64,000 nucleotides of DNA from Shigella phage SFPB: sequence record OQ031072; one strand, 5' to 3'. Positions 14,753-63,545 of this stretch are shown one piece after another (position 1 is the stretch's first letter; each line of letters opens with the position of its first letter). The translations under genes were made by a program, and so were the position numbers. The notes under the pieces are model-generated. The model searched no databases, was not told where the DNA came from, and saw nothing but the letters and a program-made list of their open reading frames with translations.

Positions 14753-14762
14753 TTATTTATAA

Positions 14763-14778: not shown

Positions 14779-14796
14779 TAGAAAGAGGATTTATAA

Positions 14797-41045: not shown

Positions 41046-43187
41046 ATGGTTAAAGTACAAATTATTAAGAAAGACGGTTCACTGGAAAAGCCAAACGTAA
41101 ATAAAATCGTCGAAGCAGTTACCAAGTCAGCTAATAGAGTTGGCTACAAAGAGTTACCACTAGAAGTTACCCATGCTCTTGAATCAGCCTTTATGAGACT
41201 GCTTGTCAGAGCAACTAATCAGAATGCTATGCTCATCTCTGTAGATGATGTTCACAGTATTGTAGAAGGGACTCTGGCAGAGGTAAACCATGAAATCTAT
41301 GAGTCATATTCAACCTACAGAAACTATCGTAAAGAGGTTGCACAGAATTGGGATGAACTTTACCAGAAAACTAAAGACACACTCTTCTTAGGTGACCGTG
41401 AGAATGCTAACTTTGACAGTAGCTTAATCTCTACAAAAGGTTCAATCATCCGTGGATATTTGACAAAAGAAATCTTTAAGCAGTATCACTTGACACCAGA
41501 AGAAGCAAGTGCTATTGAAGATGGATTCATTTATATCCATGACTTAAGAGACTTAATCTTCGGTGGTATTAACTGTTGCTTGTTTGACATGGGAAGCGTC
41601 TTGAAAGGTGGTTTTGAAATGTCAGGCATCGAATACTGTGAACCAAAGTCTGTACTTTCAGCTTTACAGGTTATTGGTGACGTTGTACTCTCAGCAACTG
41701 CACAGCAATTTGGTGGGTTTACTATCCCAGAGATTGACAAGGTTCTTGTGCCATATGCTAAGAAGTCTTTTGAGTATCATCTGGAGAAAGCAAAGCAGTA
41801 TAATATCCCAAGTAAAGAAGTATACCACTACGCTAAAGAGCAACTTCAGATTGAGCTAACCCAAGGCTTCCAATCTCTGGAAATGAAACTGAATACAGTT
41901 CCTTGCAGCCGTGGTGATTTTGCATTCACAACTTTAACGTTTGGTTTACTCGAACCAGATATGGCTAGTGAAGATAACCGCTTGCAATTTATGATTGCAA
42001 AGACTATTCTTGATGTGAGAATGAATGGTCAAGGCAAGTCTAAGAAGCCTGTTGTATTCCCTAAACTGGTTTACATTTATGATGAGACAAGGCACATGTT
42101 AGACCCTTGGCAGGGAACTCTTTATGACAAAGCTATTGAGTGCTGTTCTAAAGCTATGTATCCAGACTTCTTAAGTGTTTCTGGTCATGGTTCTGTTGCA
42201 GAAGCTTTTGAGCGTTCAGGTGCAGTCATCTCTCCAATGGGTTGTAGGGCTTTCTTATCACCATATTATGATGAAGATGGTAAAGAGTTCTACACAGGGC
42301 GAGCAAATATCGGTGCAGTATCTCTTAATCTGCCAATGATTTACAAGTATTCTGAAGAGAATGGTTTAGACTTCTGGACAGAACTTGACAAATACCTTGA
42401 AATGATTCGAAGCTTCCATAAGAAGCGTTATGAGATGATTGCTAATATGCCAGCAAGCTCTAACCCTTTAGCTTTCACACAAGGTGGATTGTATAAAGGA
42501 CATAAGAAGCCAACTGATAAGATTGGTTGGGATACTGTTAAGTCTTTTACAGCATCTTTTGGCGTGACCGCATTAGATGAATTAACAGTGCTTGCTCAAG
42601 GTAGAAGATTGCATGAGTCTGATGGTGATATTGCAAGCAAGGTTTTAAGCTATCTGAATAGCAAGCTGGAGCAGTTTAAGCAGGAAGACGGCTTCCTGTA
42701 TGCACTTTATGGTACACCTGCTGAGAGTCTTTGTGGTACGCAATTGAAGCAGTTTAGAAATATGTTCGGAGTTGTTAAAGGTGTTTCTGATAAAGAGTAC
42801 TTTACAAACAGTTTCCACATGAATGTTGGTGCAGACATTACACCGTTTGAAAAGCAAGACTTAGAAGAACCTTTCTTCCACTCTTGTAATGGAGGCCATA
42901 TCATCTACTCAAGGTTAGCCAATCCTGAGAACTTGCAAGCTATCAGGGCTTGTGTAACAAGGGGTATGGGTAAAGGATTCTATCAAGGTATCAACTTTGA
43001 CTTAGCAATCTGTGAAAATTGTGGTCACAGACCTAACAAAGATGTTGAACTATGCCCTAAGTGCAACTCCCATGATATCTCTGTGATTAATCGTGTGTGT
43101 GGTTATCTAGGTTGGACTAAGATTAAAGGTACTTCCAGAATGAACGATGCAAAAATTGCAGAAATCAAGGACAGAGTATGTATGTAA
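41046..43187 (+). CDS. nrdD: anaerobic ribonucleotide reductase, class III; start trimmed to ATG after terminator and AGGAG
   Basis: C-terminal glycyl-radical motif RVCGYLG and Cys4 zinc site CENCGH...CPKCNSHD. Confidence 0.9.
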   Translation: MVKVQIIKKDGSLEKPNVNKIVEAVTKSANRVGYKELPLEVTHALESAFMRLLVRATNQNAMLISVDDVHSIVEGTLAEVNHEIYESYSTYRNYRKEVAQNWDELYQKTKDTLFLGDRENANFDSSLISTKGSIIRGYLTKEIFKQYHLTPEEASAIEDGFIYIHDLRDLIFGGINCCLFDMGSVLKGGFEMSGIEYCEPKSVLSALQVIGDVVLSATAQQFGGFTIPEIDKVLVPYAKKSFEYHLEKAKQYNIPSKEVYHYAKEQLQIELTQGFQSLEMKLNTVPCSRGDFAFTTLTFGLLEPDMASEDNRLQFMIAKTILDVRMNGQGKSKKPVVFPKLVYIYDETRHMLDPWQGTLYDKAIECCSKAMYPDFLSVSGHGSVAEAFERSGAVISPMGCRAFLSPYYDEDGKEFYTGRANIGAVSLNLPMIYKYSEENGLDFWTELDKYLEMIRSFHKKRYEMIANMPASSNPLAFTQGGLYKGHKKPTDKIGWDTVKSFTASFGVTALDELTVLAQGRRLHESDGDIASKVLSYLNSKLEQFKQEDGFLYALYGTPAESLCGTQLKQFRNMFGVVKGVSDKEYFTNSFHMNVGADITPFEKQDLEEPFFHSCNGGHIIYSRLANPENLQAIRACVTRGMGKGFYQGINFDLAICENCGHRPNKDVELCPKCNSHDISVINRVCGYLGWTKIKGTSRMNDAKIAEIKDRVCM

Positions 43188-45236: not shown

Positions 45237-45548
45237 ATGGAAAAGGTTTATAACACTCGTAAAATTCAGATTTCTATCCTGTGCCAGTTTATGGCTGATA
45301 AACACAACTCCCACTATTGTGGTACAGGTTTCCTTACTCTAGGTGGTGGCTACATTAGCTTCAAAGAAGCTGTGAAGATGTATAATGAGCACCCTGAAGA
45401 TGACAAAGAGTTGAAACAACTGAAGCTTACTTATGACAAGAAGCGTAAGAAAATTATCTGCTTGAACAATTTTATCAAGCCAACTGAGAACGTCTATGAT
45501 GCAATTGGTGAAGAAGGCTTCTTCAAAGTCTTGAAATTAACTCAGTAA
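45237..45548 (+). CDS. hypothetical protein
   Basis: 103-aa ORF with SD. Confidence 0.45.
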   Translation: MEKVYNTRKIQISILCQFMADKHNSHYCGTGFLTLGGGYISFKEAVKMYNEHPEDDKELKQLKLTYDKKRKKIICLNNFIKPTENVYDAIGEEGFFKVLKLTQ

Positions 45549-45561
45549 ATGTATATGATTA

Positions 45562-45590
45562 GGGAACTGTAAAAGGTTCCTTTTTATTTT
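45562..45590 (+). terminator. rho-independent terminator with TGTAAAAG loop
   Basis: GGGAAC tgtaaaag GTTCC then TTTTTATTTT; same loop as terminator at 4855. Confidence 0.55.
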
Positions 45591-47278: not shown

Positions 47279-47286
47279 AAACTTTA

Positions 47287-47302
47287 GGGGCTGAAAAGCC
47301 CC
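47287..47302 (+). other. intergenic GGGGCT-GAAA-AGCCCC hairpin (no U-tract) between Prs-like and Nampt-like genes
   Basis: perfect 6-bp stem with GAAA loop. Confidence 0.4.
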
Positions 47303-47322
47303 ACTTTGAGAGAGATAAAAAG

Positions 47323-49149
47323 ATGACTAAATCAATCTATGCAGTACCAGCAGGTCTTAATGCAGATGCTTATAAAGCGGGTCATATCTATCAGTATCCA
47401 GATGCTACACAGTATCTTATGTTGAACTTAACACCTCGTGGAGATAAATGGTTTAACTCTCCGTTAGAGATTGATGGTGTTGTAGCTTTTGGTATTCAGC
47501 GTTTTGTAAAAGACTATCTGGTAGACCACTGGAATGCAACGTTCTTTGAACGTGATAAGAAAGAAGCCATTGACGAAATCTTGGAAATCATGAATGGTGT
47601 CCTTGGTGCAGATACTATTGGTCGTCAACATTGGGAAGAACTTCATGACTTGGGTTACCTACCTGTTGAAGTCTACTCTGTAGAGGAAGGTACAATTGTC
47701 CCTATGCGTGTCCCGATGATTGTCTTCAAAAATACTGTAGAGGGATTCCATTGGGTAGCTGGTTACCTTGAAGATGCTTTCTCTGCTGAAATCTGGAAAG
47801 CTTGTACGATTGCAACTATTGCACTGCATTACAAACGTATTTGTAAGCAATGGGCTGATTTAACCTGTGACAACGACTCCCATTTACCTTGGCAGTGTCA
47901 TGACTTTGCAATGCGTGGCATGTCTGGCTTCACAGATGATGCGTTTAACGCAGTAGGACACCTGACAAGCTTTAAAGGCACTGACAGCTTCCCTGCTGTC
48001 TACACTGCTAAACGTTCTTATGGTCAGTTTATGGAAGTAAGTGATATCGGCAACTCTGTACCAGCTACTGAACACTCTGTGATGTGCGCAAACATTTCAT
48101 GGAATATGAAAGACTTGTCAGAGGAAGATATTCATTCACAGTACATCATGCGGTCTGATAGCTTGCTGGATGCAAAACGTTGGCGTGGTGAGGTTAAAAC
48201 CTTTGAGCATTTACTGGTAGACGTATATCCAACTGGTATTGCAAGTGTTGTTTCAGATACTTACAACTTCTGGCGTACTGTTACAGAGATTCTGCCAGAG
48301 CTACGTAATGTAATTCTGAATCGTGATGGTAAGTTGGTAATTCGTCCAGACTCTGGAGACCCTGTTCACATTGTTACAGGTTACAAAGCCGTTGAATGGG
48401 AAACTGCTAAGTCAATGTTCTACAAGCACATGAAAGGTCTTGCACCAGATAATACCCATCTGCATGACACAATCTTGAATTGTGAAATGTCTGATATTGG
48501 TTTTGGGTTCTCTGCTTGGTTAATCTCTGAAGGTTATGAGATGGTTGTTGAAAATGAAGATTTTGATTATATTGATACAATCAACCTGATTACCGCTCAG
48601 AAAACTGGACAGTTTACTGTGAAGCGTATGTTAACAGCAGAAATTGATGGAGCTATCCACACGCTGTATAACATATTTGGTGGCACTGTTAACTCCAAAG
48701 GGTACAAAGTACTGGATGAGCACATTGGGCTAATCTACGGTGATTCTATCACTCTGGAAAGGGCTAATGAGATTCTGTCACGTCTTGCTGATAAAGGTTT
48801 TGCAAGTTCTAACGTGGTGTTTGGTGTAGGCTCATATACCTATCAGTACCTGACCCGTGACACCTTTGCATTTGCTGTTAAAGCAACTCTTGCACAGATG
48901 GATGGTCAAGAAATTATGCTGGCTAAAGACCCTAAAACTGACAGTGGTCTTAAGAAGTCTGCTTTTGGTGGGGTTGTCCCTATGTGGGATGGTGACAAGC
49001 TGGTAGCTGTAGATGGTTTTGGATTTGCAGAGTTTGAAGGTGCAATTGACAATTGCCATAGTGCTTTGAAACTGGTATTTAGCAATTCACAGGCTTGTAA
49101 CCGTGTTAACCTGCGTGATGTTCGAAATACTATTGACAAGCAACTTTAA
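47323..49149 (+). CDS. nicotinamide phosphoribosyltransferase (Nampt/NadV)-family enzyme; candidate Namat-like
   Basis: LNADAYKAGHIYQYP, HDFAMRGMSGF...FKGTDSF and IRPDSGDP segments align with Nampt. Confidence 0.8.
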   Translation: MTKSIYAVPAGLNADAYKAGHIYQYPDATQYLMLNLTPRGDKWFNSPLEIDGVVAFGIQRFVKDYLVDHWNATFFERDKKEAIDEILEIMNGVLGADTIGRQHWEELHDLGYLPVEVYSVEEGTIVPMRVPMIVFKNTVEGFHWVAGYLEDAFSAEIWKACTIATIALHYKRICKQWADLTCDNDSHLPWQCHDFAMRGMSGFTDDAFNAVGHLTSFKGTDSFPAVYTAKRSYGQFMEVSDIGNSVPATEHSVMCANISWNMKDLSEEDIHSQYIMRSDSLLDAKRWRGEVKTFEHLLVDVYPTGIASVVSDTYNFWRTVTEILPELRNVILNRDGKLVIRPDSGDPVHIVTGYKAVEWETAKSMFYKHMKGLAPDNTHLHDTILNCEMSDIGFGFSAWLISEGYEMVVENEDFDYIDTINLITAQKTGQFTVKRMLTAEIDGAIHTLYNIFGGTVNSKGYKVLDEHIGLIYGDSITLERANEILSRLADKGFASSNVVFGVGSYTYQYLTRDTFAFAVKATLAQMDGQEIMLAKDPKTDSGLKKSAFGGVVPMWDGDKLVAVDGFGFAEFEGAIDNCHSALKLVFSNSQACNRVNLRDVRNTIDKQL

Positions 49150-49163
49150 AACAGTATGATAAG

Positions 49164-49187
49164 AGGCTCCTACGGGAGCCTTTTTAA
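49164..49187 (+). terminator. rho-independent terminator
   Basis: AGGCTCC tacg GGAGCCT then TTTTT. Confidence 0.6.
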
Positions 49188-49202
49188 TTTGTGGAGAAGA
49201 AT

Positions 49203-49418
49203 ATGAGATTTAACACGGATTTATTTTATACAGATAGCACTGGATTCTTTGGTGGATATTGTGTAGCATCTTGGCAGTTATGGTTCTCAGAAGAGTACAG
49301 GGGTGATATGCAGGTTTTTGTAGAAGATTATAAGTTCCCTACAAAACCTACTAAACGCCAGATTAGAAAGCTTCGCAGAGAGTTTCGTAAAACTTGCAAA
49401 GGGATTAACAGACTATGA
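49203..49418 (+). CDS. hypothetical small basic protein; start trimmed
   Basis: SD GGAGAAG; 71 aa. Confidence 0.4.
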   Translation: MRFNTDLFYTDSTGFFGGYCVASWQLWFSEEYRGDMQVFVEDYKFPTKPTKRQIRKLRREFRKTCKGINRL

Positions 49419-49750
49419 AAATTAAACAGATGAATGTTAATTTAATCATTGAAGAACGTTGGGAAAACATCAAGCGCCATGAAGATGGTCATAAGTTTAT
49501 CAATGAACTGTTTCAAGCAGCACAATCAGAGTTAGCTTCTGAGATTTATACAACGGTTACTTTGAAGGTTTATATCAAAGGTCTTCCACAGAACCATCAA
49601 GAAGCTCTTGATTTGTTTCAAGAAGAATTTTACAATCCAAACAAAAAGATACTTGAGAATAGTTTTGCAGTATCTTCGAGTATTGTCCATGACAGGAGTT
49701 TTGTCCTATTCAGAACTATAGGAGACAAGGTATGCAAGGTTATTGGTTAG
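49415..49750 (+). CDS. hypothetical protein
   Basis: 111-aa ATGA-coupled ORF. Confidence 0.45.
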   Translation: MKIKQMNVNLIIEERWENIKRHEDGHKFINELFQAAQSELASEIYTTVTLKVYIKGLPQNHQEALDLFQEEFYNPNKKILENSFAVSSSIVHDRSFVLFRTIGDKVCKVIG

Positions 49751-49911
49751 AAATTGTTCTTTCACTCGGTTGTATAGTTGCTATTGCAGTATTACTATGC
49801 AAGTACTTCTCAGAGACTGAACCTTGTGATGAATGTGAAGGTTCTGGGGTAGTTGGTATAGGGCATTGTTGCCCTTACTGTAATGGAACTGGAAAGAAAT
49901 TTAAAAAGTAA
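49732..49911 (+). CDS. small membrane-anchored zinc-ribbon protein (59 aa), not in ORF track
   Basis: SD GGAGACAAGG; N-terminal hydrophobic helix; CDECEGSG...CCPYCNGTG. Confidence 0.35.
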   Translation: MQGYWLEIVLSLGCIVAIAVLLCKYFSETEPCDECEGSGVVGIGHCCPYCNGTGKKFKK

Positions 49912-49973
49912 CTTGACAGTGGCATCTATAAAATTATATAGTTTGCCACATCGACAACTAAGGAGATACTCTT

Positions 49974-52346
49974 ATGCGCATGGTAAATGACCACGCAACG
50001 GTAATTAAAAGCTCAAGTACACTGGAAACCTCTCAGGCTCAGATTAAGATGACACCTGAAATGTTCAGTCTTCTAAGCTCAGGTGTTTACACATATAAAG
50101 AACGTGCTGTAATTCGTGAATTGTCATGTAACGCAGTAGATGCTCACATTGATTCTGGTAACGTTGATAAACCTTTCTTGGTTCACTTACCAACTCGTTT
50201 CGAGCCATTCTTTGAAGTTCGTGACTTTGGTACTGGATTGACTCATGATAAAGTAATGGACCTCTACATGAACTACGGAGAGTCAACAAAGAATGATTCA
50301 AATGACTACATCGGAGCTATGGGTATCGGTTCAAAGTCACCGTTTGCGATTGCTCAATCATTTACTGTATCAAGCTACGTTGATGGTGTTGTTAACAAGT
50401 ACTCTGTATATCTTGAGAATGGTATCCCTCAAGTTACTAAGTTGACTACTAACCCAACTACAGAGCCAAATGGTTTAGCTGTTCGAGTAGCGGTATCTGA
50501 TAACCGTATTAACAAGTTTCATGAAGAAGCGAGCAATGTATACTCGTACTTTAAAGTTAAGCCAGAGTGTAATGTTGAGTACTATGACATTCTTGAAGCA
50601 ATGACTTCCATTTCTCGTGAAGATGGTGTCTATGATGCAATGAAGTACAAAGAGAACTGGCGCTCAAATAGTAACAGTGTCCATTTCAACGTAATCATGG
50701 GAGATATTGCTTATCCTGTTGAAATGGGCGAGTTGCTTGGTTCAGAGTTTACAAGTATTCTGCCTCAGTTCTTCCGTAGTGCTGTAGACCTTGTTAATAT
50801 CTACATGCCAATTGGTTCAGTGGCTATTGCTGCATCTCGTGAAGCATTACAGATGAATGAGACCACTAAGACAAAGATTGTTGAAGCCGTGAAGAAAATC
50901 ACTAAGACAATCGTTGAAGATGTGGTTAAAGAGATTGCTAATAAGCCAACGCTGATTGATGCTGCTCAGGCTTATGATACCATGAGGAAAGAGGCTCGTG
51001 AAATCTTTAATCACGTCCAAGATTCTCTGGAGTGGCAAGGTCAGAACTTGAAAAAGCTTGAACAAAAGCTATTGGGTATTCGTCGTGGTCAGTTAACTGA
51101 AGCAGATGGTTCTCCATCATTCTTGAAAGATGATGCAGGTAACTTAAGGCTTGACAAAGACGGTAATCCAGTCCCTAATATTGGTAATCTGTATGAGCCT
51201 GTAGCATATTACAAGTACAGCAGTCTGGAGAATCGTATTCGAGCAACTTCAGCAACATATTCACAAGATGCTGCCATGTTTAGTATCTTTGGTGCAATGA
51301 GTAAAGATAAGTTGAGCAACTATTTGTTCCTTATCAATGACCGTCGAAACAAGAACGGGTCTGAAAAGACGACTGGTAAAAATCAGATTATCCGTGGAGC
51401 TTGCCGTGACCGTGAACAGGAAGATTCTAACTTCCGTCGCTACAATGGTATTGCTTTCTTGTTCAGCAGTCAGCAGCAATTTGATGAATTTGTAGCTCTG
51501 CATATGCTTGACAAGACTCTGTTAAGTGTGCATACAATGTCATCTAAAGAGCACCACTATGAGAAACGTACCATTGTACGTGGAGTGGTGAAGCTGTACA
51601 AAGCATTTATATGTCCAAATACTTACATGATTCGTTATACAGAGGTTAAAGAGAACTTTGATGAGATTGAAGAACCACAACTGTATATCAAAGCACAGAG
51701 TGATGAAGTGATTGGTGGAATCTTCTCATGTTCACCAGAACGTGCTGCAACGTTGATGACAGAGTTAACTGGACAGTCTGTTTATGTCTTCCGTAAAGCC
51801 AACTGGAAAAAGATTCCTGAAGACTGGACAGAAGTCAATGAACAAGTAATGAAAGATTTTATTGATAACACTCATTGGATTGAGTATCACCGTTACTTGA
51901 CTCACCAATATATGACTAATAATCATGATATCACTGATTGTAATGTGATTTCTCGAAACTTTATGTTTGCTGATAAGCGTAAGTCCAGAGGCCACATTTA
52001 CAGTAAAGACTTTAAGAAGACTATTTTCTTAGAGGGGAATGAAGAGGCTATAGAAGCAATGTTTGGACGCTTGGCATATACTGCTGCACCAGTTGCTTAC
52101 AAAGATATTACCAGCACTCTTGATACCATTCGCAGGAATATGAGAGGCTCTTGTAAGCCAAGAAAGGTTCTGGATAACGCTAAGAAGCGTCTTGAAAGTA
52201 AGTTCAAAGATTACTTTGAGAAACGCCGTAAAGAAAACTTCTTGCTTTCTAATCTGGATTGGAATAAAGTATCACCAGTCGAAGTTGGTAAGTTTTTAGG
52301 TTTTGACACTAAGAGCATTCCAGAAGATACTGTATGCTGGGATTAA
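49974..52346 (+). CDS. rIIA: rIIA-like protein with GHKL-type ATPase domain
   Basis: N-terminal ELSCNAVDA, RDFGTGL and GAMGIGSKS motifs; ~790 aa; followed by rIIB-sized gene. Confidence 0.55.
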   Translation: MRMVNDHATVIKSSSTLETSQAQIKMTPEMFSLLSSGVYTYKERAVIRELSCNAVDAHIDSGNVDKPFLVHLPTRFEPFFEVRDFGTGLTHDKVMDLYMNYGESTKNDSNDYIGAMGIGSKSPFAIAQSFTVSSYVDGVVNKYSVYLENGIPQVTKLTTNPTTEPNGLAVRVAVSDNRINKFHEEASNVYSYFKVKPECNVEYYDILEAMTSISREDGVYDAMKYKENWRSNSNSVHFNVIMGDIAYPVEMGELLGSEFTSILPQFFRSAVDLVNIYMPIGSVAIAASREALQMNETTKTKIVEAVKKITKTIVEDVVKEIANKPTLIDAAQAYDTMRKEAREIFNHVQDSLEWQGQNLKKLEQKLLGIRRGQLTEADGSPSFLKDDAGNLRLDKDGNPVPNIGNLYEPVAYYKYSSLENRIRATSATYSQDAAMFSIFGAMSKDKLSNYLFLINDRRNKNGSEKTTGKNQIIRGACRDREQEDSNFRRYNGIAFLFSSQQQFDEFVALHMLDKTLLSVHTMSSKEHHYEKRTIVRGVVKLYKAFICPNTYMIRYTEVKENFDEIEEPQLYIKAQSDEVIGGIFSCSPERAATLMTELTGQSVYVFRKANWKKIPEDWTEVNEQVMKDFIDNTHWIEYHRYLTHQYMTNNHDITDCNVISRNFMFADKRKSRGHIYSKDFKKTIFLEGNEEAIEAMFGRLAYTAAPVAYKDITSTLDTIRRNMRGSCKPRKVLDNAKKRLESKFKDYFEKRRKENFLLSNLDWNKVSPVEVGKFLGFDTKSIPEDTVCWD

Positions 52347-52353
52347 AAATAGT

Positions 52354-52382
52354 TTGACAGGGGCTGAAAAGCCCCTTAGAAT
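52354..52382 (+). promoter_or_regulatory. sigma70-like promoter TTGACA-17-TAGAAT whose spacer is the GGGGCTGAAAAGCCCC hairpin
   Basis: -35 52354-52359, hairpin 52360-52375, -10 52377-52382. Confidence 0.45.
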
Positions 52383-52425
52383 ACGAACCACTAAGTAATT
52401 TTAAACAACAAAGAGAGATATTGAA

Positions 52426-53554: not shown

Positions 53555-53580
53555 GGGGCTGCTTCGGCAGCCTTTTTTAT
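53555..53580 (+). terminator. rho-independent terminator
   Basis: GGCTGC ttcg GCAGCC then TTTTTT. Confidence 0.6.
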
Positions 53581-54872: not shown

Positions 54873-55337
54873 ATGCAAAACATTATTACAGTAGCTATCG
54901 ATGCTTCCGGTAACAAATCACAGGTAGTTCGTGAGATTATCAAAAGTAATTTCGATGGTAAAATCTTTCGTGCAGTAAACGTGAAAGCTGATGGTAACAT
55001 TCGTGAGTATCGTGCAATGTTGAATGTTACAAAACACGTTAAGGGTGTTGGTTCAACTACTGCTCATAAAGAAAATCTGATGACTATCTATGATATGGGT
55101 ATGGCTTCAGAGTTAGGTGCAAAAGGGATTGTACAATCTGGTGCTCCTTACCGTTCTTTCAATCTGGAAACTGCTCTTATGCTTTCCTTTACAAGTGGTT
55201 CTCAAACTACCACTTACCTCTTCACAGATACTGCAACGGTTTCTGCGATTAAGGACAATACCATTAAGGCTGGTGTAGCTGCTGCTTCAAAAGCCTCAAC
55301 AATGGCAGCAAATGTCCTTGCGAAAGTTCTTGGTTAA
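54873..55337 (+). CDS. hypothetical protein
   Basis: 154-aa ORF with SD. Confidence 0.45.
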   Translation: MQNIITVAIDASGNKSQVVREIIKSNFDGKIFRAVNVKADGNIREYRAMLNVTKHVKGVGSTTAHKENLMTIYDMGMASELGAKGIVQSGAPYRSFNLETALMLSFTSGSQTTTYLFTDTATVSAIKDNTIKAGVAAASKASTMAANVLAKVLG

Positions 55338-55348
55338 AGTTATTATAG

Positions 55349-55372
55349 AGGCTCCTTCGGGAGCCTTTTTCA
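55349..55372 (+). terminator. rho-independent terminator
   Basis: AGGCTCC ttcg GGAGCCT then TTTTT. Confidence 0.6.
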
Positions 55373-56931: not shown

Positions 56932-57726
56932 ATGGGTATCGTAAAAATTATTAAAGGTGATATCTTTAAAGACTTTGATGGTAAGAAATTTGATATCATT
57001 GGTCACGGTTGCAACTGCATGAACTTGATGGGTGCAGGTATCGCAGCAACAATTGCCAAACGTTACCCAAAAGCTTATGAAACTGATGCTGAAGTTTATG
57101 CTACAGTAGGTGGTGAAAATCATAACCCTAAGCATCTAATGCTTGGTAACATCTCTGTAGCACGTTTTAAGCAGGGTCGAATTGCTAACCTTTACACTCA
57201 GGTTATCACTGGCAAAGATGCACGATACAACGCCTTAGAAGCAGCTTTACAGCGTCTTAACAACTACTGTAAAGTTAATCAACTTAAGAAAGTTGGACTT
57301 CCTATGATTGGTGCAGGGATTGGTGGTCTTGACAGCATGGCTGTGCTGTCTATCATCAATCAGACCATGAAAGATGTTGACGTTTATATGTATGTCTATG
57401 AAGATAAGATGTACAGTCAGTTGACTAGTCCGGTTACTGGTTGGGAAAACTTTAGTGAACCTCAATACTTTGATGGTGTTGCCGTGGTAGGCAAGGATAA
57501 AGTTACTCTCAAGGTGAAGCGTAATGGTAAGGTACACACCAGTTACCCTCCGGTTGATAAGTACAATCGAAGTAACGCTCAAGTTACCCACCCGTTACAA
57601 GGCCATTGTCACAGAGCCGTAACATTTGGTGATGATGCAAGTGTGTATATCGGTGCTGCTACAGAAGAGTTTGCAGAGGATTATATCACACATGAGAATG
57701 TTAACTATGTTGAAGCACGTAACTAA
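56932..57726 (+). CDS. macro-domain (ADP-ribose binding/processing) protein with C-terminal extension; start trimmed
   Basis: GDIF...FDIIGHGCNCMNLMGAGIAATIAK resembles the macro NAAN...GGGVAGAI signature; second Gly-rich loop LPMIGAGIGGLD. Confidence 0.5.
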   Translation: MGIVKIIKGDIFKDFDGKKFDIIGHGCNCMNLMGAGIAATIAKRYPKAYETDAEVYATVGGENHNPKHLMLGNISVARFKQGRIANLYTQVITGKDARYNALEAALQRLNNYCKVNQLKKVGLPMIGAGIGGLDSMAVLSIINQTMKDVDVYMYVYEDKMYSQLTSPVTGWENFSEPQYFDGVAVVGKDKVTLKVKRNGKVHTSYPPVDKYNRSNAQVTHPLQGHCHRAVTFGDDASVYIGAATEEFAEDYITHENVNYVEARN

Positions 57727-57751
57727 TAAGTTACCTAAATAGACATAGACA

Positions 57752-57799
57752 AGCCCTCCAAAGTTTGAGTTTAAAATCTCAGGTAAGGAGGGCTTTTTC
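57752..57799 (+). terminator. terminator-like hairpin (8-bp stem AGCCCTCC/GGAGGGCT, large loop) with U-tract
   Basis: stem arms 57752-57759 and 57787-57794, TTTTT 57795-57799. Confidence 0.45.
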
Positions 57800-57979
57800 A
57801 TTTCAAATTTGTGCAGGTGCAATTGCATAGAACTCTGGACAGATTTCTTTAGCTGAACTCCAAAGGGAAAATTCATTTTCAATTTGTGCAGGTCTAGACT
57901 CCAAAGAGCTTTTTCATTTTCAATCTGTGCAGATGCAGTTGGACTCCAAAGGGAAAATTCATTTTCAATTTGTGCAGGT
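57795..57979 (+). repeat. tandem direct repeats (iterons), 3 full copies plus 1 partial, unit ~40-45 bp, core TTCATTTTCAAT(T/C)TGTGCAG(G/A)T
   Basis: Copies at 57855-57893, 57896-57934, 57941-57979 (first and third near-identical), partial at 57795-57818. Confidence 0.8.
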
Positions 57980-58152
57980 AGGTAGCTATAGGAAGCCAGC
58001 CCCACCATCCCCTCTTACTCCCCTTCCTCCCAAAAGTCAAGAGAAAAATTTGTAGAGAACTAAAAAATAATTCTTGACTAGTTTTCTGTTTTCTGTTAGT
58101 TGCGTACACGCGTTTCATTCACAACATGCCAAAAATATTTTTAAAAATTTTG

Positions 58153-58238
58153 TTGACTCTATGAATCCAGTTTTGTAGTATTTGCATCAACGGGGCAAGA
58201 TAAAGCCCCAACAATCCTAAACTGGAGAATCTAGAATG
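58153..58238 (+). promoter_or_regulatory. early-promoter cassette, variant B: TTGACT-17-TAGTAT, 5'UTR hairpin GGGGC-N8-GCCCC, CCTAAACTGGAGA RBS
   Basis: -35 58153-58158, -10 58176-58181, hairpin 58191-58208, ATG 58236. Confidence 0.6.
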
Positions 58239-58442
58239 TTATATCAACGGGAATTAATGATTGTAGACAATAACAAAACTAAAAAACGTCGCTTCTTTAT
58301 GTTAATCTGTGACGTGTGGCAAAGAATATCTGAAAAGGATTATGACAAGTATGTTGATACATCAATCAGGTCGGATTGTTATTTGACAAATCACACAAGA
58401 CAGTTTACAAGACATACAGCAGTTTACTACTATGACGTTTAA
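58236..58442 (+). CDS. hypothetical small protein
   Basis: 68 aa; canonical cassette spacing. Confidence 0.5.
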   Translation: MLYQRELMIVDNNKTKKRRFFMLICDVWQRISEKDYDKYVDTSIRSDCYLTNHTRQFTRHTAVYYYDV

Positions 58443-58453
58443 AGGGCTTGACA

Positions 58454-58615
58454 ATGATTAAAGAAGGCAATGTAATAAGCTACAAAGATTTAGACGGATA
58501 CCCAAAAATTGGGAAAGTTTTCTACCTTTACAAGTCAGTGATGGATAATGACTGCATAGCCCTAACAAATGGCGACAAGATAACCATGAAAGATTTTATA
58601 AAAATTATTTCATAA
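58454..58615 (+). CDS. hypothetical small protein (53 aa), not in ORF track
   Basis: SD AAAGGG 8 nt upstream; stop abuts next cassette. Confidence 0.35.
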   Translation: MIKEGNVISYKDLDGYPKIGKVFYLYKSVMDNDCIALTNGDKITMKDFIKIIS

Positions 58616-58707
58616 AGTGCTTTACATGGGGTTTAAAAAGGTAGTATCTTAAGCCCCAGATAAAGAGCTTTACCACTAAACAATCCTAAACTGGAGATTC
58701 TAAAATG
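58616..58707 (+). promoter_or_regulatory. early-promoter cassette, variant A: AAGTGCTTTACA(-35) ... TAGTAT, hairpin GGGGTTTAA-N12-TTAAGCCCC, CCTAAACTGGAGA RBS
   Basis: repeat family member; ATG 58705. Confidence 0.6.
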
Positions 58708-59088
58708 AAAAAATATTATATGCCAAAATTCATCAAGAAAGAAAACTTTCGTGATGCTCTGGAAAAATACATGAATGAGCAGTTCAAAGGTAAATTAATT
58801 GTTGTCCACGCATACAATTTTAAGTATGATGTAAATGGAAACAAGACAAATCACTATACCGCTACGATGCTGGATGGTACACTCTCAGGTGAAAAAGCCA
58901 TTATCAATGCACTGGCTGGACGTGGTAAAACGTTGATACGTTGTGATAAACGCCGATATCAGGGCAGTTCTTATGGTTATGAGGATGCAGTCTATCACCT
59001 TGATAACATGGGTTACAATGTCGAAAAAGCTGGCGTGTCTCAAATGATTGGTAGTGATGGATATGTGACAATTTTTAAAATTAACTAA
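58705..59088 (+). CDS. hypothetical protein
   Basis: 127 aa, cassette-driven. Confidence 0.5.
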   Translation: MKKYYMPKFIKKENFRDALEKYMNEQFKGKLIVVHAYNFKYDVNGNKTNHYTATMLDGTLSGEKAIINALAGRGKTLIRCDKRRYQGSSYGYEDAVYHLDNMGYNVEKAGVSQMIGSDGYVTIFKIN

Positions 59089-59090
59089 TA

Positions 59091-59178
59091 AAGTGCTTTA
59101 CATGGGGTTTATAGTTCAATAAGATAAGCCCCAGATAAAGAACTTTATTACTAACCTAAACTGGAGATTCAAAAAATG
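59091..59178 (+). promoter_or_regulatory. early-promoter cassette, variant A
   Basis: AAGTGCTTTACA-17-TAAGAT, hairpin, CCTAAACTGGAGA; ATG 59176. Confidence 0.6.
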
Positions 59179-59433
59179 GCTACCATTAAAAACATCGTAA
59201 TTACTGCAAAATCCCGTGATGATGCTCGTGCAACTGCTAAAAAATTAAATGGTAAAGTGGTTGACAACGGAAAAGATTCTACTGTAAGATGGGGCGTAAA
59301 GACAGACAAAAAATTAACTCTTAAACATAGCTCTTACAATATGTTTAAAGGTGTAAAAACTATCGGTAACACTAACGTGTTTACAAAACAGGGTTACAAA
59401 ATGCACTTAGCATTAATTGGCAATTTAATCTAA
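59176..59433 (+). CDS. hypothetical small basic protein
   Basis: 85 aa. Confidence 0.5.
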   Translation: MATIKNIVITAKSRDDARATAKKLNGKVVDNGKDSTVRWGVKTDKKLTLKHSSYNMFKGVKTIGNTNVFTKQGYKMHLALIGNLI

Positions 59434-59522
59434 AAGTACTTTACATGGGGTTTATAAGTCGATAGTATAAGCCCCAGATAAAGAGCTTTACCAACAATCC
59501 TAAACTGGAGATTCAAAAAATG
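59434..59522 (+). promoter_or_regulatory. early-promoter cassette, variant A
   Basis: AAGTACTTTACA-17-TAGTAT, hairpin GGGGTTTATA/TATAAGCCCC, RBS; ATG 59520. Confidence 0.6.
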
Positions 59523-60032
59523 AAATCAGTCGAAAGCACCTTTGAAGTTCAAAAAGAAAAATTTACTATCATCTTTGAAGCAATGAATGTTTATGAGCCT
59601 TCCCATTGTGTGGATAACTGGCAATTCACTGATGAGCATAAAGGAGGAGTTACAATCAAAGTTAAAAACTCAGAACGTAACGGCTACAAATATGCAATTC
59701 CTATGCACTATGCGCTTTCACAGCTTGCCAGTGATTACGCAAAACAGGGAAGGGATAACCCATCATTAGCCGCTTACAAGAGCTTACAAGATGAACTAGA
59801 AAGGGATTTAGGGGCTAATAGCTACATTCTATACGCCTCAGTAGTTGACGCTGAAGGCAACACGGTTTTAAATAGTTTTTCCCTTGCGTATGGTTTTGAT
59901 TGGTGCTATCTTGACGGGGAAGATTTAGATTCACGCTTAAAAGAGGAAGTAAGCAATTCAGGTGCTGAAGAGGAAGTTTTAGAGCGCTTGGAAGATTTAA
60001 AAGATAGTGTGATGAATATCTTTAATATCTAA
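59520..60032 (+). CDS. hypothetical protein
   Basis: 170 aa. Confidence 0.5.
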   Translation: MKSVESTFEVQKEKFTIIFEAMNVYEPSHCVDNWQFTDEHKGGVTIKVKNSERNGYKYAIPMHYALSQLASDYAKQGRDNPSLAAYKSLQDELERDLGANSYILYASVVDAEGNTVLNSFSLAYGFDWCYLDGEDLDSRLKEEVSNSGAEEEVLERLEDLKDSVMNIFNI

Positions 60033-60120
60033 AAGTACTTTACATGGGGGTTATCAAGTTGCTAAGATAGCCCCAGATAAAGAGCTTTACCAACAATCCT
60101 AAACTGGAGAATCTAAAATG
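60033..60120 (+). promoter_or_regulatory. early-promoter cassette, variant A
   Basis: AAGTACTTTACA-18-TAAGAT, hairpin, RBS; ATG 60118. Confidence 0.6.
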
Positions 60121-60408
60121 AAAATTCCTGCTAATGTACGCTCAAAGTTAAGCCAATTACTACAAAACATTTCTTTTGTAGAATCTCATAGACGTTCACA
60201 GGATGTTATAGAGTGGTATCATGGGAAGATTAACAAGAAAGAAGTTTTAATCTGTATTTGGAACTTTCAAAAAGAACATGGCAAGCCATTGCTTCAGGTT
60301 GACATTTATGATAATACTAGCAAATCAGCAGTAAAATCAAAAGCTGATATGATTGATTCATATGAAATTAGTCACACTGGTAGATTATCACACGTTGGGA
60401 AGGTTTAA
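60118..60408 (+). CDS. hypothetical protein
   Basis: 96 aa. Confidence 0.5.
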   Translation: MKIPANVRSKLSQLLQNISFVESHRRSQDVIEWYHGKINKKEVLICIWNFQKEHGKPLLQVDIYDNTSKSAVKSKADMIDSYEISHTGRLSHVGKV

Positions 60409-60409
60409 A

Positions 60410-60736
60410 ATGTTACTTTCTGGTATCGCAATTCTGATTTCAATTGTGGCGCTATGTAAAGCTTATCAAGCCTCAGCATATGCAGATAAGGCCATCACAA
60501 GGAAAGTTAAAATAAACCTTGTAAGTAGCTTCTTAGAGCGTTTAAGCGTGGAACAATTACAACGTTTAGAGATGGGCTTCAGGTTTAAGGCAGACACTTA
60601 TCAAATCAGTGATGTTTTATCCGGTAACTTTGAGCTTGTTAATGATTACAATACGTTACTAAATGCTATTCAAGCTACTGATTTAAAAGAATATTATCCG
60701 GCTATTGCACAAGAAATTAATAAACGCAAAAAATAG
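60410..60736 (+). CDS. small membrane protein; start trimmed
   Basis: N-terminal TM LLSGIAILISIVALC; in frame with track ORF 60353..60736. Confidence 0.45.
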   Translation: MLLSGIAILISIVALCKAYQASAYADKAITRKVKINLVSSFLERLSVEQLQRLEMGFRFKADTYQISDVLSGNFELVNDYNTLLNAIQATDLKEYYPAIAQEINKRKK

Positions 60737-60737
60737 C

Positions 60738-60822
60738 TTGCAAAGGCAAATCAAAACAAGTAAAGTACTCATCAACGGGGCAAGCAAGCCCCCAACAATC
60801 CTAAACTGGAGAATCTAAGATG
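60738..60822 (+). promoter_or_regulatory. early-promoter cassette, variant B (TTGCAA-17-TAAAGT, hairpin GGGGCAAGCAAGCCCCC, RBS)
   Basis: -35 60738-60743, -10 60761-60766; ATG 60820. Confidence 0.6.
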
Positions 60823-61092
60823 TATACAACTAATAATGGCAGAACTTTAAATGTAACTTTAAAGCACTATGTAGATGGTGTATTAAACTTTGAAGACTTG
60901 CAAGCAGAACAGCACTTGTTAGCTTGGCAAGTAGCAGGATTACAAAAAACCGCCACCGGATATGGGAAGAAAATCCCTACATCTTGGAAAGTTCGATACC
61001 TTGGAAAGTTACGCAGAATTTATCAAGATGTTTACAGTAATAGTGGTGTAAGTTACATTATTGTTAGTGGTAAAAAGTTACATCTTGCTTAA
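60820..61092 (+). CDS. hypothetical protein
   Basis: 90 aa. Confidence 0.5.
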   Translation: MYTTNNGRTLNVTLKHYVDGVLNFEDLQAEQHLLAWQVAGLQKTATGYGKKIPTSWKVRYLGKLRRIYQDVYSNSGVSYIIVSGKKLHLA

Positions 61093-61094
61093 TA

Positions 61095-61182
61095 AAGTGC
61101 TTTACATGGGGTTTATAAGTCGATAGTATAAGCCCCAGATAAAGAACTTTATCACTAACCTAAACTGGAGATTCAAAAAATG
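61095..61182 (+). promoter_or_regulatory. early-promoter cassette, variant A (near-identical to copy at 59434)
   Basis: AAGTGCTTTACATGGGGTTTATAAGTCGATAGTATAAGCCCCAGATAAAGAAC...; ATG 61180. Confidence 0.6.
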
Positions 61183-61581
61183 GCTACGAACAAAGATATA
61201 GCAGTACTGAAAGCACGTTTGACCGTTAACCGTATTAATGCTATCACATCAACCGCACCAGATGAGGTTTTACATAACATTATCGGTAAAATTCAGGGTG
61301 TAATTTTAGACGTTGAAAACATCAGAAATTCACTTGCAAATGTTGCACAGGGTGTTACACTTGACGGCGCACAATATGAAATGGCTGATATGCTTTCAAA
61401 GTCAAAAGTTCTTAATAAAGAATTAGACTTGAAAATGTTTCGATTTGCTGTTAAAGTGTGGTTATCTGTTGAGTTTGATGCTAACTTTGCAATTGCTGAT
61501 TTCTTTGCAACGTGGTTACAACGTAATTTAGAAAAGCAAGATTTTCAAGATATCTGCGATACAATTTACGCAGAACTTTAA
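61180..61581 (+). CDS. hypothetical protein
   Basis: 133 aa. Confidence 0.5.
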   Translation: MATNKDIAVLKARLTVNRINAITSTAPDEVLHNIIGKIQGVILDVENIRNSLANVAQGVTLDGAQYEMADMLSKSKVLNKELDLKMFRFAVKVWLSVEFDANFAIADFFATWLQRNLEKQDFQDICDTIYAEL

Positions 61582-61588
61582 AAAACGT

Positions 61589-61675
61589 TTGACACTAATT
61601 TTTAGATAGATTAAAGTACTCATCAACGGGGCAAGACAGAAGCCCCAACAATCCTAAACTGGAGATTCAAAAATG
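61589..61675 (+). promoter_or_regulatory. early-promoter cassette, variant B (TTGACA-17-TAAAGT, hairpin, RBS)
   Basis: -35 61589-61594, -10 61612-61617; canonical ATG 61673. Confidence 0.6.
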
Positions 61676-61677
61676 AA

Positions 61678-62229
61678 ATGCTTTCACGGAACTACTCAAG
61701 AAAATTTTGTAAACCTGCTGAGTGGTGGAGAAAACCTTCAGGGGCTTGGAATTGCTCAGACAGTGACGGGTGTTTTTATGTTTACCCTGTTAGTAAGTTC
61801 TATGATGTAGAGGATATGGACGCAGAACAAATCACTGAAGAGGGTATTAGAAACGCTCTGGATAGCGCAAGTATCACAGCGGCTTTCCAGATGAAATCAC
61901 AAAAAATCGTTATCTTGGAACTTGATATTCCAGAAGATGAATTACAAGATGACTGGAGCTGTGAGAACATGAGCGATGTTGCAAGCTTTACAGAATACTT
62001 TGATAGGGCTTGGATTAAAAAGATTTACACAACTGAATTTAATGCTATGTATGCACCGTTTTTTGTACCTAACTTGAACAATAGAAATCTGGGCTATGTA
62101 CCTGATGAATTACATAACATTGCTGTAATGATTCAACGTAGCGATGAGATGAATAACGTGTTTTGTGATTTGTGCGACAACTTGCAATCTAACATAACAG
62201 AAAGCACTGTAAGCGACGTTTTAGCGTAA
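61678..62229 (+). CDS. hypothetical protein; start ambiguous (61678 in-frame ATG, or cassette-canonical ATG 61673 in the +1-offset frame joined at T5 run 61774-61778)
   Basis: 183-aa ORF from 61678; alternative 45-codon ORF from 61673 ends at 61810. Confidence 0.45.
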   Translation: MLSRNYSRKFCKPAEWWRKPSGAWNCSDSDGCFYVYPVSKFYDVEDMDAEQITEEGIRNALDSASITAAFQMKSQKIVILELDIPEDELQDDWSCENMSDVASFTEYFDRAWIKKIYTTEFNAMYAPFFVPNLNNRNLGYVPDELHNIAVMIQRSDEMNNVFCDLCDNLQSNITESTVSDVLA

Positions 62230-62292
62230 ACCATACAATCACACTAACAACATTCAAAAGCCCTGTATAGGGGCTTACAAGGGGTTTAAATC

Positions 62293-62529
62293 ATGTTAAC
62301 GACTATCTATCTCATGCTTGCCGTTTGCTCTGGTGCAAATAATTGTCATTATGGCATTATGGAATCTTTCGAAGGCACTAAACAAAATGCAGTAGAGGCT
62401 TGCAATATTGCTAGACAGGACTACCCGAAATCGTCTATAATGGGCTGTTATGTCTTACAAGGTGAAGACGAAAGCACAGAATACTACGAAAACGTTAATG
62501 AAGATGAGTTTTTAGAGATTTACAAATAA
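62293..62529 (+). CDS. small secreted/lipoprotein-like Cys-containing protein
   Basis: Hydrophobic N-terminus MLTTIYLMLAVCSG; 78 aa. Confidence 0.45.
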   Translation: MLTTIYLMLAVCSGANNCHYGIMESFEGTKQNAVEACNIARQDYPKSSIMGCYVLQGEDESTEYYENVNEDEFLEIYK

Positions 62530-62606
62530 AGTACTTTACATGGGGCTTTAAACCTTGCTACTATAAGCCCCAGATAAAGAGCTTTCCTAAACTGGAGATT
62601 CAAATG
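62529..62606 (+). promoter_or_regulatory. early-promoter cassette, variant A (shortened 3' part)
   Basis: AAGTACTTTACA-18-TACTAT, hairpin, CCTAAACTGGAGA; ATG 62604. Confidence 0.55.
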
Positions 62607-62753
62607 ATGACGCATACTATTGAGACAGTTTTTAACAACCCTGTATTCTCAGAGATGATTTTCTCATTTATCATGATGTTACTAGTAAAAATCATGAAAA
62701 AAGCAGAAAAACTACATTTAAAGAAAAAATCTATTGTAAACCGTATTAAGTAA
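62604..62753 (+). CDS. small membrane protein (49 aa), not in ORF track
   Basis: cassette-driven; hydrophobic core FSFIMMLLV then basic tail. Confidence 0.4.
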   Translation: MMTHTIETVFNNPVFSEMIFSFIMMLLVKIMKKAEKLHLKKKSIVNRIK

Positions 62754-62800
62754 AGTTACAGTATCTATCAAGCCCACTTCCTAAACTGGAGAATCTGAAA

Positions 62801-63142
62801 ATGGCACATGTAACCATAATTACTGATAAAGAAAATTCATCTTGGTCTACAAAAGTAAGTGATAAAGTGTCGCCTTTACAGTGCCTAAAATACTTTGAGC
62901 AATGGAATCGCGGCGAGGATGTTAGCCCGTTTCATGTGATGCGTATAGTTCACACTGACAAAGAAGGGAATAAAACAACCTTAAACAGTGAATACTATGC
63001 AACACGATTTGAAACAAAAGTTAACACAATGAAAATATTACGTGAATCCGGCTATGGTCACATTGCCGCTTTAATCTGGAGTGATTTACTCAAAGACCAA
63101 AAAATGACCTATGTCAAGACAGAAAAAATCTTTATAAGCTAA
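62801..63142 (+). CDS. hypothetical protein
   Basis: 113 aa; preceded by CTTCCTAAACTGGAGAATC RBS module. Confidence 0.5.
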   Translation: MAHVTIITDKENSSWSTKVSDKVSPLQCLKYFEQWNRGEDVSPFHVMRIVHTDKEGNKTTLNSEYYATRFETKVNTMKILRESGYGHIAALIWSDLLKDQKMTYVKTEKIFIS

Positions 63143-63269
63143 TCAATGACTTACAAAATTCTTTGAAAAAACTGTTGACAATACCCCTTGACATTGATAG
63201 ATTTGTTCGAGGGGTTTATCTAAAAGGGATTCACTTAAAAGATTCTTTATAGATAAGCGTAAAAAGTAC

Positions 63270-63340
63270 TTGCAAAGGTCTAATCATATCTATATAGTAT
63301 CTTCAAAAGGCAACTTCCTAAACTGGAGAATCACTAAATG
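63270..63340 (+). promoter_or_regulatory. early promoter TTGCAA-17-TATAGT plus CCTAAACTGGAGA RBS module (no hairpin)
   Basis: -35 63270-63275, -10 63293-63298; ATG 63338. Confidence 0.5.
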
Positions 63341-63478: not shown

Positions 63479-63545
63479 AGTATTTATCAACGGGGAGGAG
63501 ACTTCCCCACTAAAACAAAATTCCTAAACTGGAGAATCTAGAATG
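63453..63545 (+). promoter_or_regulatory. early-promoter cassette, variant B (TTGCAA-17-TAAAGT, hairpin GGGGAGGAGACTTCCCC, RBS)
   Basis: -35 63453-63458; ATG 63543. Confidence 0.6.

Follow-up and report, generated by a model that had tools for sequence, protein, structure and literature searches.

The closest described counterparts of the element examined here are the promoter-early stem-loop (PeSL) cassettes of T4-like phages (RB49/phi1, T4/PST, and KVP40/nt-1), in which a near-consensus sigma-70 promoter and an AT-rich upstream stretch are combined with a G(N)-loop-C(N) stem-loop; both terminator and promoter activities were shown by lacZ fusions, "half" PeSLs consist of the stem-loop without a functional -10, and it has been suggested that the cassettes stop or attenuate transcription arriving from upstream and at the same time initiate a new transcript (Arbiol et al. 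2010, PMC2839356; Comeau et al. 2014, PMC4122927). The subject of this study is the inverted repeat GGGGCT-N4-AGCCCC in Shigella phage SFPB (OQ031072), of which a whole 64-kb stretch (64,000 nucleotides; referred to as the window, and the basis of all coordinates) was analysed. The window derives from a Felix O1-like myovirus (Ounavirinae, genus Mooglevirus) and is approximately 96-98% identical to the Shigella phages Sf17 and Sf15 and to Citrobacter phages. We favour, with slightly better than even confidence, the reading that the three copies of this repeat are worn-down terminator hairpins kept as leaky stops or RNA 3'-end caps, the copy upstream of rIIB having been built into a promoter.

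Two other known systems are close in structure. Intrinsic terminators, including t76 of Felix O1 (PMC3185647), share with the three hairpins the 6-7 bp GC-rich stem, the tetraloop, the position after a stop codon in sense orientation, and the stability. The difference lies in the U-tract: homologous or positional equivalents in relatives have one, whereas the hairpins of the window do not, as graded by T-tract weight, a decaying score of T-richness 3' of the stem (0.02-1.0 against at least 3.1). U-less stem-loops that protect RNA 3' ends are represented by the repetitive extragenic palindromic (REP) elements of E. coli (malE-malF), the intercistronic tetraloop hairpins of T4, and trimmed Rho-dependent 3' ends, and such hairpins have been proposed to set the relative stability of the upstream cistron. 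REP-type hairpins are likewise stable, lie between co-transcribed genes without a U-run, and are proposed to block 3'-5' exonucleases, but they are longer, host-encoded, and highly repeated.

Exactly three exact matches to GGGGCT-N4-AGCCCC, scored on either strand, were present in the window: GGGGCTACACAGCCCC at 14763-14778, and GGGGCTGAAAAGCCCC at both 47287-47302 and 52360-52375. The mean number of matches in 100 dinucleotide-preserving shuffles of the window was 0.00, and the sole extra match with two mismatches allowed was at 60777 (GGGGCAAGCAAGCCCC), where 0.24 was expected. An earlier reading of the DNA from sequence only (referred to as the sequence-only reading) had noticed these three sites and their gene junctions, both of which were confirmed, and had proposed a genome-wide motif search; run across the window and the complete Sf17 genome, this search returned the same three copies in each and no others. 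Every copy was located in a short gap separating co-directional genes on the plus strand, with 8-13 nt between the upstream stop codon and the hairpin, in sense orientation. The flanking genes were a gp10_C-type (upstream) and a gp37-type (downstream) tail-fibre gene at 14763; the genes for ribose-phosphate pyrophosphokinase (PRPP synthase; upstream) and nicotinamide phosphoribosyltransferase (NAMPT; downstream) at 47287, referred to as the nicotinamide adenine dinucleotide (NAD) junction; and rIIA (upstream) and rIIB (downstream) at 52360. The hairpins, the predicted rIIB promoter, and a full terminator used for reference were as follows.

14762-14779, plus strand: hairpin at the fibre junction, AGGGGCU-ACAC-AGCCCCU, 7 bp, -11.7 kcal/mol, no U-run
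47287-47302, plus strand: hairpin at the NAD junction, GGGGCU-GAAA-AGCCCC, 6 bp, GNRA loop, -11.3 kcal/mol
52359-52376, plus strand: hairpin embedded in the rIIB promoter, AGGGGCU-GAAA-AGCCCCU, 7 bp, -12.9 kcal/mol
52354-52359, plus strand: -35 hexamer TTGACA of the rIIB promoter, with the AT-rich stretch ATTAAAAATAGT just upstream
52377-52382, plus strand: -10 hexamer TAGAAT of the rIIB promoter (TAGAAT or TAAAAT, invariant in hairpin-bearing relatives)
53557-53572, plus strand: canonical terminator after rIIB, GGCUGC-UUCG-GCAGCC then UUUUUU

The fibre hairpin began 10 nt past the stop codon of the upstream fibre gene (14750-14752), and its 3' end was 3 nt from a Shine-Dalgarno (SD) sequence (AAGAGGA) and 17 nt from the ATG at 14797. 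The NAD hairpin began 8 nt past the PRPP-synthase stop and was followed by ACUUU, the SD sequence GAGAGAG, and the NAMPT ATG at 47323, while the rIIB hairpin began 13 nt past the rIIA stop codon (52344-52346). A GC-rich stem-loop on the sense strand, as in a terminator, was thus present at each site (6-7 bp, five G-C pairs, 4-nt loops, -11.3 to -12.9 kcal/mol), with a GNRA tetraloop at two of the three.

The U-rich tract of a terminator was absent from the 3' tails of all three hairpins (AGAAAGAG, ACTTTGAG, and TAGAATAC). Their T-tract weights were 0.02 (fibre), 0.88 (NAD), and 1.00 (rIIB), compared with 3.1-5.0 in eight bona fide terminators of the window (17835, 36883, 41009, 45561, 49164, 53557, 55349, and 57751), in which UUCG, UACG, or similar loops are followed by a T-run; the stem energies overlapped (-11.3 to -12.9 vs -8.7 to -20.7 kcal/mol). 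The same scan of the window for GC-rich hairpins, from which these terminators were obtained, gave a second class of twelve hairpins that start with GGGG, end with CCCC, and have a T-tract weight of 1.0 or less: the three focal elements, six Type A cassettes, and three Type B cassettes (the latter two described below). The missing U-run, from which the sequence-only reading had concluded that these are not classic terminators, holds in this genome, and efficient factor-independent termination by an E. coli-type RNA polymerase is not expected at the three hairpins because the U-tract is missing in the window.

A second type of promoter/terminator overlap was seen at 49133-49184, 55318-55368, and 45531-45582, where the -10 of a good sigma-70-like promoter is followed after 1-2 nt by a canonical terminator hairpin with its T-run; transcripts from these promoters would begin within the 5' arm, escaping the terminator. 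Mirror-image AGCCCC-N6-GGGGCT hairpins of Sf17 (L072) at 984-1001 and 2520-2537, which lie beyond the region that the window spans, have T-runs and are ordinary terminators, and a mirror-image hairpin in L073 at 42589-42607 (Sf17 87589-87607) has no T-run. The phage thus draws repeatedly on a small vocabulary of stem sequences.

The evidence that carries our reading came from relatives, examined at the corresponding junctions. In the Erwinia phage vEam_PM_27 (Kolesnikvirus), the fibre junction held a canonical terminator, GGACTC-TTCG-GAGTCC followed by TTTTTATTTGCATTTTT; Felix O1-type genomes had GGGGCT-N4-AGCCCC followed by TTTT, and the T-run was lost in Moogle-type genomes, including the window. 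Table 2 of Whichard et al. (2010, PMC3185647) gives the homologous Felix O1 hairpin as the rho-independent terminator t76. At the rIIA/rIIB junction, the Erwinia phage had GGGGCTG-GAAA-CAGCCC followed by TTCTT, with no promoter boxes, while L030, the rIIB of which is 61% identical, retained TTGACA with another hairpin, AAGTGGTC...GGCCACTT, across the -10 region. T-tract weight dropped stepwise while hairpin stability was maintained, as listed below.

Fibre junction, T-tract weight: Erwinia phage 4.69; Felix O1-type genomes 3.10; intermediate relatives 1.05 and 0.56; window 0.02
rIIA/rIIB junction, T-tract weight: Erwinia phage 1.83; Felix O1-type genomes 1.03; window 1.00
NAD junction, T-tract weight: Erwinia phage, no hairpin; Felix O1-type genomes 1.87; window 0.88

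These terminator-like versions and the graded series suggested that the three junctions are terminator positions across the subfamily, that the rIIA/rIIB hairpin predates the promoter built around it, and that, over a long distance, it is a hairpin that persists and no particular sequence. The separate class of non-terminator elements in the sequence-only reading is accordingly only partly retained: the hairpins are U-less here, but the same junctions are terminator-like in relatives (UUCG type in the Erwinia phage, t76 in Felix O1).

In the mechanism that we propose, the three elements would be sense-strand RNA hairpins that punctuate polycistronic phage transcripts. Their U-tract would have been eroded at the fibre and NAD junctions and overwritten by the -10 box at rIIA/rIIB, an SD sequence being the other candidate for such overwriting. 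With the U-tract lost, the hairpin would no longer be an efficient intrinsic terminator, and what is retained may weakly attenuate read-through and/or shield the upstream message from 3'-5' exonucleases by capping its 3' end. The fibre and NAD copies are better viewed as remnants of terminators without a U-tract or as protective hairpins between cistrons. RNA stability or processing had been among the suggestions of the sequence-only reading; stability or attenuation remains the best reading, while processing by RNase III is implausible on a stem of 6-7 bp.

The rIIB copy is the one that resembles a PeSL. TTGACA/TAGAAT matched the sigma-70 consensus at 11 of 12 positions, with a 17-bp spacer (52360-52376) composed of the 16-nt palindrome and one T. 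The palindrome had been described as exactly filling this spacer; it does sit there, but covers 16 of the 17 bases. When the flanking A-T pair was counted, the stem was 7 bp and overlapped the last base of the -35 box. Downstream of the promoter were AAAGAGAGA and the ATG at 52426. Transcription of rIIB would start near 52389-52391, approximately 7 nt past TAGAAT, and transcripts started at this promoter would therefore be without the hairpin, whereas those from rIIA would carry it whole. Termination/insulation and re-initiation would thus share 29 bp, an arrangement that would insulate rIIB expression from rIIA in minimal space, like the PeSLs of T4-like phages. The likeness extends to TTGACA-N17-TAnnAT, the AT-rich upstream stretch, the stem-loop between -35 and -10, and the SD sequence with the start codon, all in one short gap. 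On the other hand, PeSLs have been described only in T4-like phages, and this is an Ounavirinae (Felix O1-like) genome, for the group of which no PeSL report was found in a literature search; the rIIB copy lies between conserved core genes and not in a hyperplastic region of ORFans; and the PeSLs of T4-like phages are further characterised by reporter activity, mini-circle formation, and recombination, whereas the architecture here is predicted from sequence. The fibre and NAD hairpins also differ in having no promoter, as no acceptable -35/-10 pair was found at either copy. Weak boxes at the fibre hairpin (TTTATA-N17-TAGAAA in the window), and CTTTACA abutting it in Felix O1-type genomes, were considered as a degenerate "half" PeSL and set aside as too weak for such a claim. 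A second hairpin embedded in a promoter-like spacer (57329-57356) was located inside a coding region and is probably due to chance.

A scan of a viral collection for the composite of -35 and GGGGCT hairpin found it almost only at the rIIA/rIIB junction of Ounavirinae genomes, with approximately 4 chance matches expected for 18 specified bases (an estimate). Two of the four matches outside the Ounavirinae (L085 and L090) had no -10 box and were treated as chance. The other two formed a pair of unrelated uncultivated phages, L089 (4094-4116, minus strand) and L100 (7545-7567, minus strand), with TTGACA-A-GGGGCT-GCAA/GTGA-AGCCCC-TACAAT/TATAAT and the same layout as in the window: stop codon, TTGACA, GGGGCT-N4-AGCCCC, and TAYAAT. 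In L089 the composite was 4 nt past the upstream stop, and the gene downstream of it begins with MKSKAFTYV. Similarity between the two contigs was confined to short blocks; L089 had no megablast match in the GenBank phage collection, and neither L089 nor L100 showed tblastx similarity to Sf17.

Partial termination, RNA 3' ends, and promoter activity, together with in vivo folding and RNA stabilisation, are inferred, because no transcriptomes or transcript-end maps of the Felix O1 group were found in the searchable literature beyond the 2010 genome paper. In Felix O1, coarse reverse-transcription PCR (RT-PCR) placed the peak of rIIA at 25 min and that of rIIB at 10 min, while genes 76/77 (fibre) fell into a common timing class, as did genes 127-130. 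This timing is compatible with an own promoter for rIIB and with read-through at the other two junctions.

Conservation was assessed at related loci drawn from IMG/VR. The hairpin was kept in 29 of 30 loci at rIIA/rIIB (loops GAAA, GCAA, TTGA, and TCAA), in 22 of 28 relatives at the NAD junction (nine different loops), and in all 12 at the fibre junction; the sequence-only reading had named a motif not conserved in relatives, together with a lack of transcript ends or processing at the sites, as grounds for abandoning its idea, and the motif proved to be kept across the subfamily. TTGACA was kept in 29 of the 30 rIIA/rIIB loci, with TTGACT in one. Column entropy was 0.03-0.07 bits in the stems, far below that in the loops (0.8-1.2) and flanks (0.55-0.83), which points to purifying selection on the stems. 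The terminator after rIIB, taken as a control, was just as invariant as the GGGGCT stems in the same genomes, and stem invariance alone is therefore no proof of sequence-specific recognition. Since, in addition, the relatives are too close, covariation was dropped as a test of structure versus sequence recognition. No Rfam covariance model matched anywhere in the window at the gathering threshold. Among the variants, L067 and Felix O1 retained pairing via a G.U wobble, possible on the sense strand alone; the NAD hairpin of L043/L044 was in a slipped register; and the rIIA/rIIB stem of the Erwinia phage had an extra G-C pair beside the loop. These variants likewise indicate that structure is kept over sequence.

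Reverse-complement loops coexisted among relatives; at the NAD junction these were TAAA/TTTA and TGAA/TTCA, and at rIIB TTGA/TCAA. When the rIIB loop state was mapped onto a neighbour-joining tree of 22 Felix O1-type genomes, at least 7 changes were required, compared with 7.2 after shuffling, and no single-step intermediates were seen; the loop thus appears to invert recurrently as one unit. Unit inversion is a known replication behaviour of short inverted repeats, and loop flipping is therefore a DNA-level hairpin or inverted-repeat activity that is uninformative on function. The loops examined were from L009-L031 (rIIA/rIIB) and L039-L059 (NAD), and the reverse-complement pairs were scattered randomly over the phylogeny. 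Loop style tended to be common to both loci within a clade (GAAA/GCAA in Moogle-type and TNNA in Felix-type genomes), hinting at concerted evolution or clade-specific selection. In six relatives of different clades (L032, L034, L036-L038, and L040), a gene for an HNH_3 homing endonuclease (163 aa) lay between the PRPP-synthase and NAMPT genes, in the region homologous to 47279-47322; it filled the exact stop-to-SD interval, and the hairpin was gone. The HNH enzyme may have its homing target in or near the NAD palindrome.

Several observations weigh against worn-down terminator hairpins as the explanation. No true compensatory double substitutions within the GGGGCT stem were seen among the relatives, because these are too close. 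The AACCCC variant of L017 and L031 loses a pair on the sense strand, with a G.U pair possible on the antisense strand. The NAD copy is dispensable, because six relatives have the HNH gene in its place. In Felix O1 virions, gp77 (the downstream fibre protein) was detected far better than gp76, which does not suggest strong attenuation between the fibre genes. E. coli RNA polymerase normally requires a U-tract for termination, and with a T-tract weight of 0.02 the term "attenuator" may therefore overstate any effect at the fibre site.

A DNA-level regulatory site, the other suggestion of the sequence-only reading, would be an operator: a 16-bp palindrome bound by a dimeric phage or host regulator, such as a Cro/CI-type helix-turn-helix (HTH) protein of the phage group, which, when bound in the promoter spacer, would shut off or time rIIB transcription. 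The palindrome is perfect, the centres of its half-sites are 10 bp (one helical turn) apart, and it occupies the spacer of a near-consensus promoter; the stem is identical at the three loci and invariant in relatives, with the central 4 bp free to vary, and in the unrelated phage pair a promoter spacer holds these 12 arm bases in identical register. A Cro/CI-type HTH regulator is encoded by Sf17 and would be a candidate for the binding protein. However, two of the three copies are outside promoters, just upstream of SD sequences inside operons, and the invariant stem is not diagnostic, since the same degree of invariance was seen in the ordinary terminator downstream of rIIB. In the Erwinia phage the rIIA/rIIB hairpin stands without a promoter, in L030 the promoter is combined with another hairpin, and the variants found (G.U wobble, slipped register, added loop-proximal pair) preserve pairing and not half-site symmetry. 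Arm spacing also differs in the other G4...C4 elements (16-19 nt and 29-30 nt); variable spacing within Type A, which had been considered as a further argument, was dropped because that spacing is constant at 29-30 nt, while the difference between classes stands. The fixed 4-bp spacing and promoter location of an operator are combined in the rIIB copy only, and an operator, unlikely overall, is possible for that copy alone because the other two lie outside promoters.

The hairpins may instead act on the message downstream: left at or near a new 5' end after endonucleolytic cleavage upstream, each would shield the NAMPT or second fibre message from attack by RNase E that depends on the 5' end or, in an alternative form of the idea, would insulate the SD sequence from long-range pairing. 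The fibre and NAD hairpins end 3-5 nt before the SD sequence, at the 5' edge of the ribosome-binding region, and Type B cassettes put a G4...C4 hairpin approximately 2-4 nt from the inferred transcript start; the ompA leader is a known 5' stabiliser of such geometry. Nevertheless, the rIIB copy, excluded from the rIIB transcript, is left unexplained, no cleavage site is known, HNH-carrying relatives have NAMPT without the hairpin, and the terminator-like tails at the same positions in relatives point to a 3'-end function, so that this role is improbable to the same degree as an operator. A somewhat slimmer chance is given to an element of recombination or mobility without a transcriptional role, namely, a hot spot for modular exchange, homing-endonuclease targeting, or replication template switching. 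The recurrent loop flips (random on the tree) and the HNH gene in the exact hairpin interval would fit, as would the coincidence of Type A/B cassettes with a sharp identity break and indels of open reading frames (ORFs) relative to Sf17, like PeSLs in T4-like phages; but a pure recombination substrate would not have to lie 8-13 nt after stops in sense orientation, strong stem conservation and terminator-like tails are unaccounted for, loop flipping is the expected by-product of any short inverted repeat, and no identity break was noticed at the three focal sites, where no search for one was made. RNase III processing, as in T7 early mRNA, scarcely merits consideration: the sites are intercistronic and fold stably, but RNase III substrates have approximately two helical turns (~20 bp) of possibly interrupted duplex, and the stems of 6-7 bp with 4-nt loops fall short of this length. 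A longer fold predicted around the fibre hairpin in the window was not conserved in relatives, and Rfam gave no matches.

GGGGCT-N4-AGCCCC occurred only three times, between conserved genes, and a repeated series resembling that of PeSLs was formed at 58-63 kb by the Type A (six) and Type B (three) cassettes. The sequence-only reading had overlooked the PeSL match of the rIIB copy and these nine further G4...C4 promoter/hairpin cassettes.

58614-58671, 59090-59146, 59433-59489, 60032-60088, 61094-61150, and 62528-62585, plus strand: six copies of the Type A cassette, 57-58 bp
61589-61646, plus strand: Type B cassette, TTGACA-N17-TAAAGT (promoter 61589-61617), 10 nt, and the hairpin GGGGC...GCCCC (61628-61646)

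Type A, with the sequence AAAGTRCTTTACAT-GGGGYTTA...TAAGCCCC-AGATAAAGARCTTT, lies upstream of small early ORFs and has a -35-like TTTACA, with the TAnnAT -10 box and the spacer wrapped by a G4...C4 hairpin without a U-run. The six copies also combine the promoter and stem-loop of a PeSL, in which the stem-loop may overlap the -10 as well. An outer A/U-rich stem surrounds the hairpin, and the whole cassette folds at approximately -23 to -27 kcal/mol. At one stem position, five of the six copies carry U.G and the remaining one C-G, a difference that would be compatible only with sense-strand pairing. Type B has sister hairpins at 58192-58209 and 60777-60792 (three copies in all); the conserved leader AACAATCCTAAACTGGAG is downstream of the Type B hairpin, which would fall 2-4 nt from the 5' terminus of the transcript and so be placed like a 5' stabiliser. 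The leader CCTAAACTGGAG follows both types. The Felix O1 genome paper listed uninterpreted 57-bp and 39-bp direct repeats (PMC3185647); Type A is the 57-bp repeat, and Types A and B together correspond to both.

Both types are repeated among small early ORFs and, in a possible further likeness to PeSLs, coincide with indels and an identity break. The first Type A cassette marked a fall in identity to Sf17 from 96.7% to approximately 77%, and two larger indels or replacements (an extra Sf17 ORF and a replaced segment) were bounded by cassettes; the coordinates of breaks and indels were 58453/58613, 61635-61645, and 62315-62779 in the window vs 83717/83704, 86691-86975, and 87646-88464 in Sf17. 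This pattern is consistent with cassette-mediated, PeSL-like modular exchange.

Other features of the early region were also noted. A near-identical translation-initiation leader, CCTAAACTGGAGAWTC-N4-6-ATG, precedes at least eight small early genes (8-10 sites in 58209-63568, e.g., 58678-58706, 59492-59522, and 61646-61673), and such sharing suggests that the early ORFans are under joint control of translation or processing. A 500-bp non-coding gap at 57727-58235 contains a long terminator (57751-57795), four to five tandem copies of approximately 40-45 bp of ...TTCATTTTCAATTTGTGCAGGT (57776-57979), and the pyrimidine-rich tract CCCCACCATCCCCTCTTACTCCCCTTCCTCCC (~57995-58035), and its motif TGTGCAGGT recurs in the promoter after the rIIB terminator (~53590). 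This gap may be regulatory or origin-like.

All twelve U-less G4...C4 hairpins (3 + 9) might form a class of factor-dependent signals read by a phage or host protein for termination, antitermination, or processing of transcripts, and perhaps also PeSL-like recombination cassettes of a sort not described in this phage family, an idea that we regard as speculative and quite unlikely. To our knowledge, Felix O1-like phages encode no RNA polymerase and no recognised polymerase modifiers; if true, factor-dependent reading would supply them with a temporal switch and with a means of early-gene shuffling.

No current view is overturned by these results: the elements are real, conserved, non-random, and of a known kind. 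The comparative series is one in which terminators decay to U-less hairpins that are still under selection. Because terminator finders overlook such sites, knowing them helps in the annotation of phage transcription units, and it may also serve the design of compact insulators and the first transcript-end maps of the Ounavirinae. If worn-down terminator hairpins are the correct reading, the "terminator inside promoter" design would extend beyond T4-like phages to the Felix O1 subfamily and to at least one unrelated uncultivated lineage.

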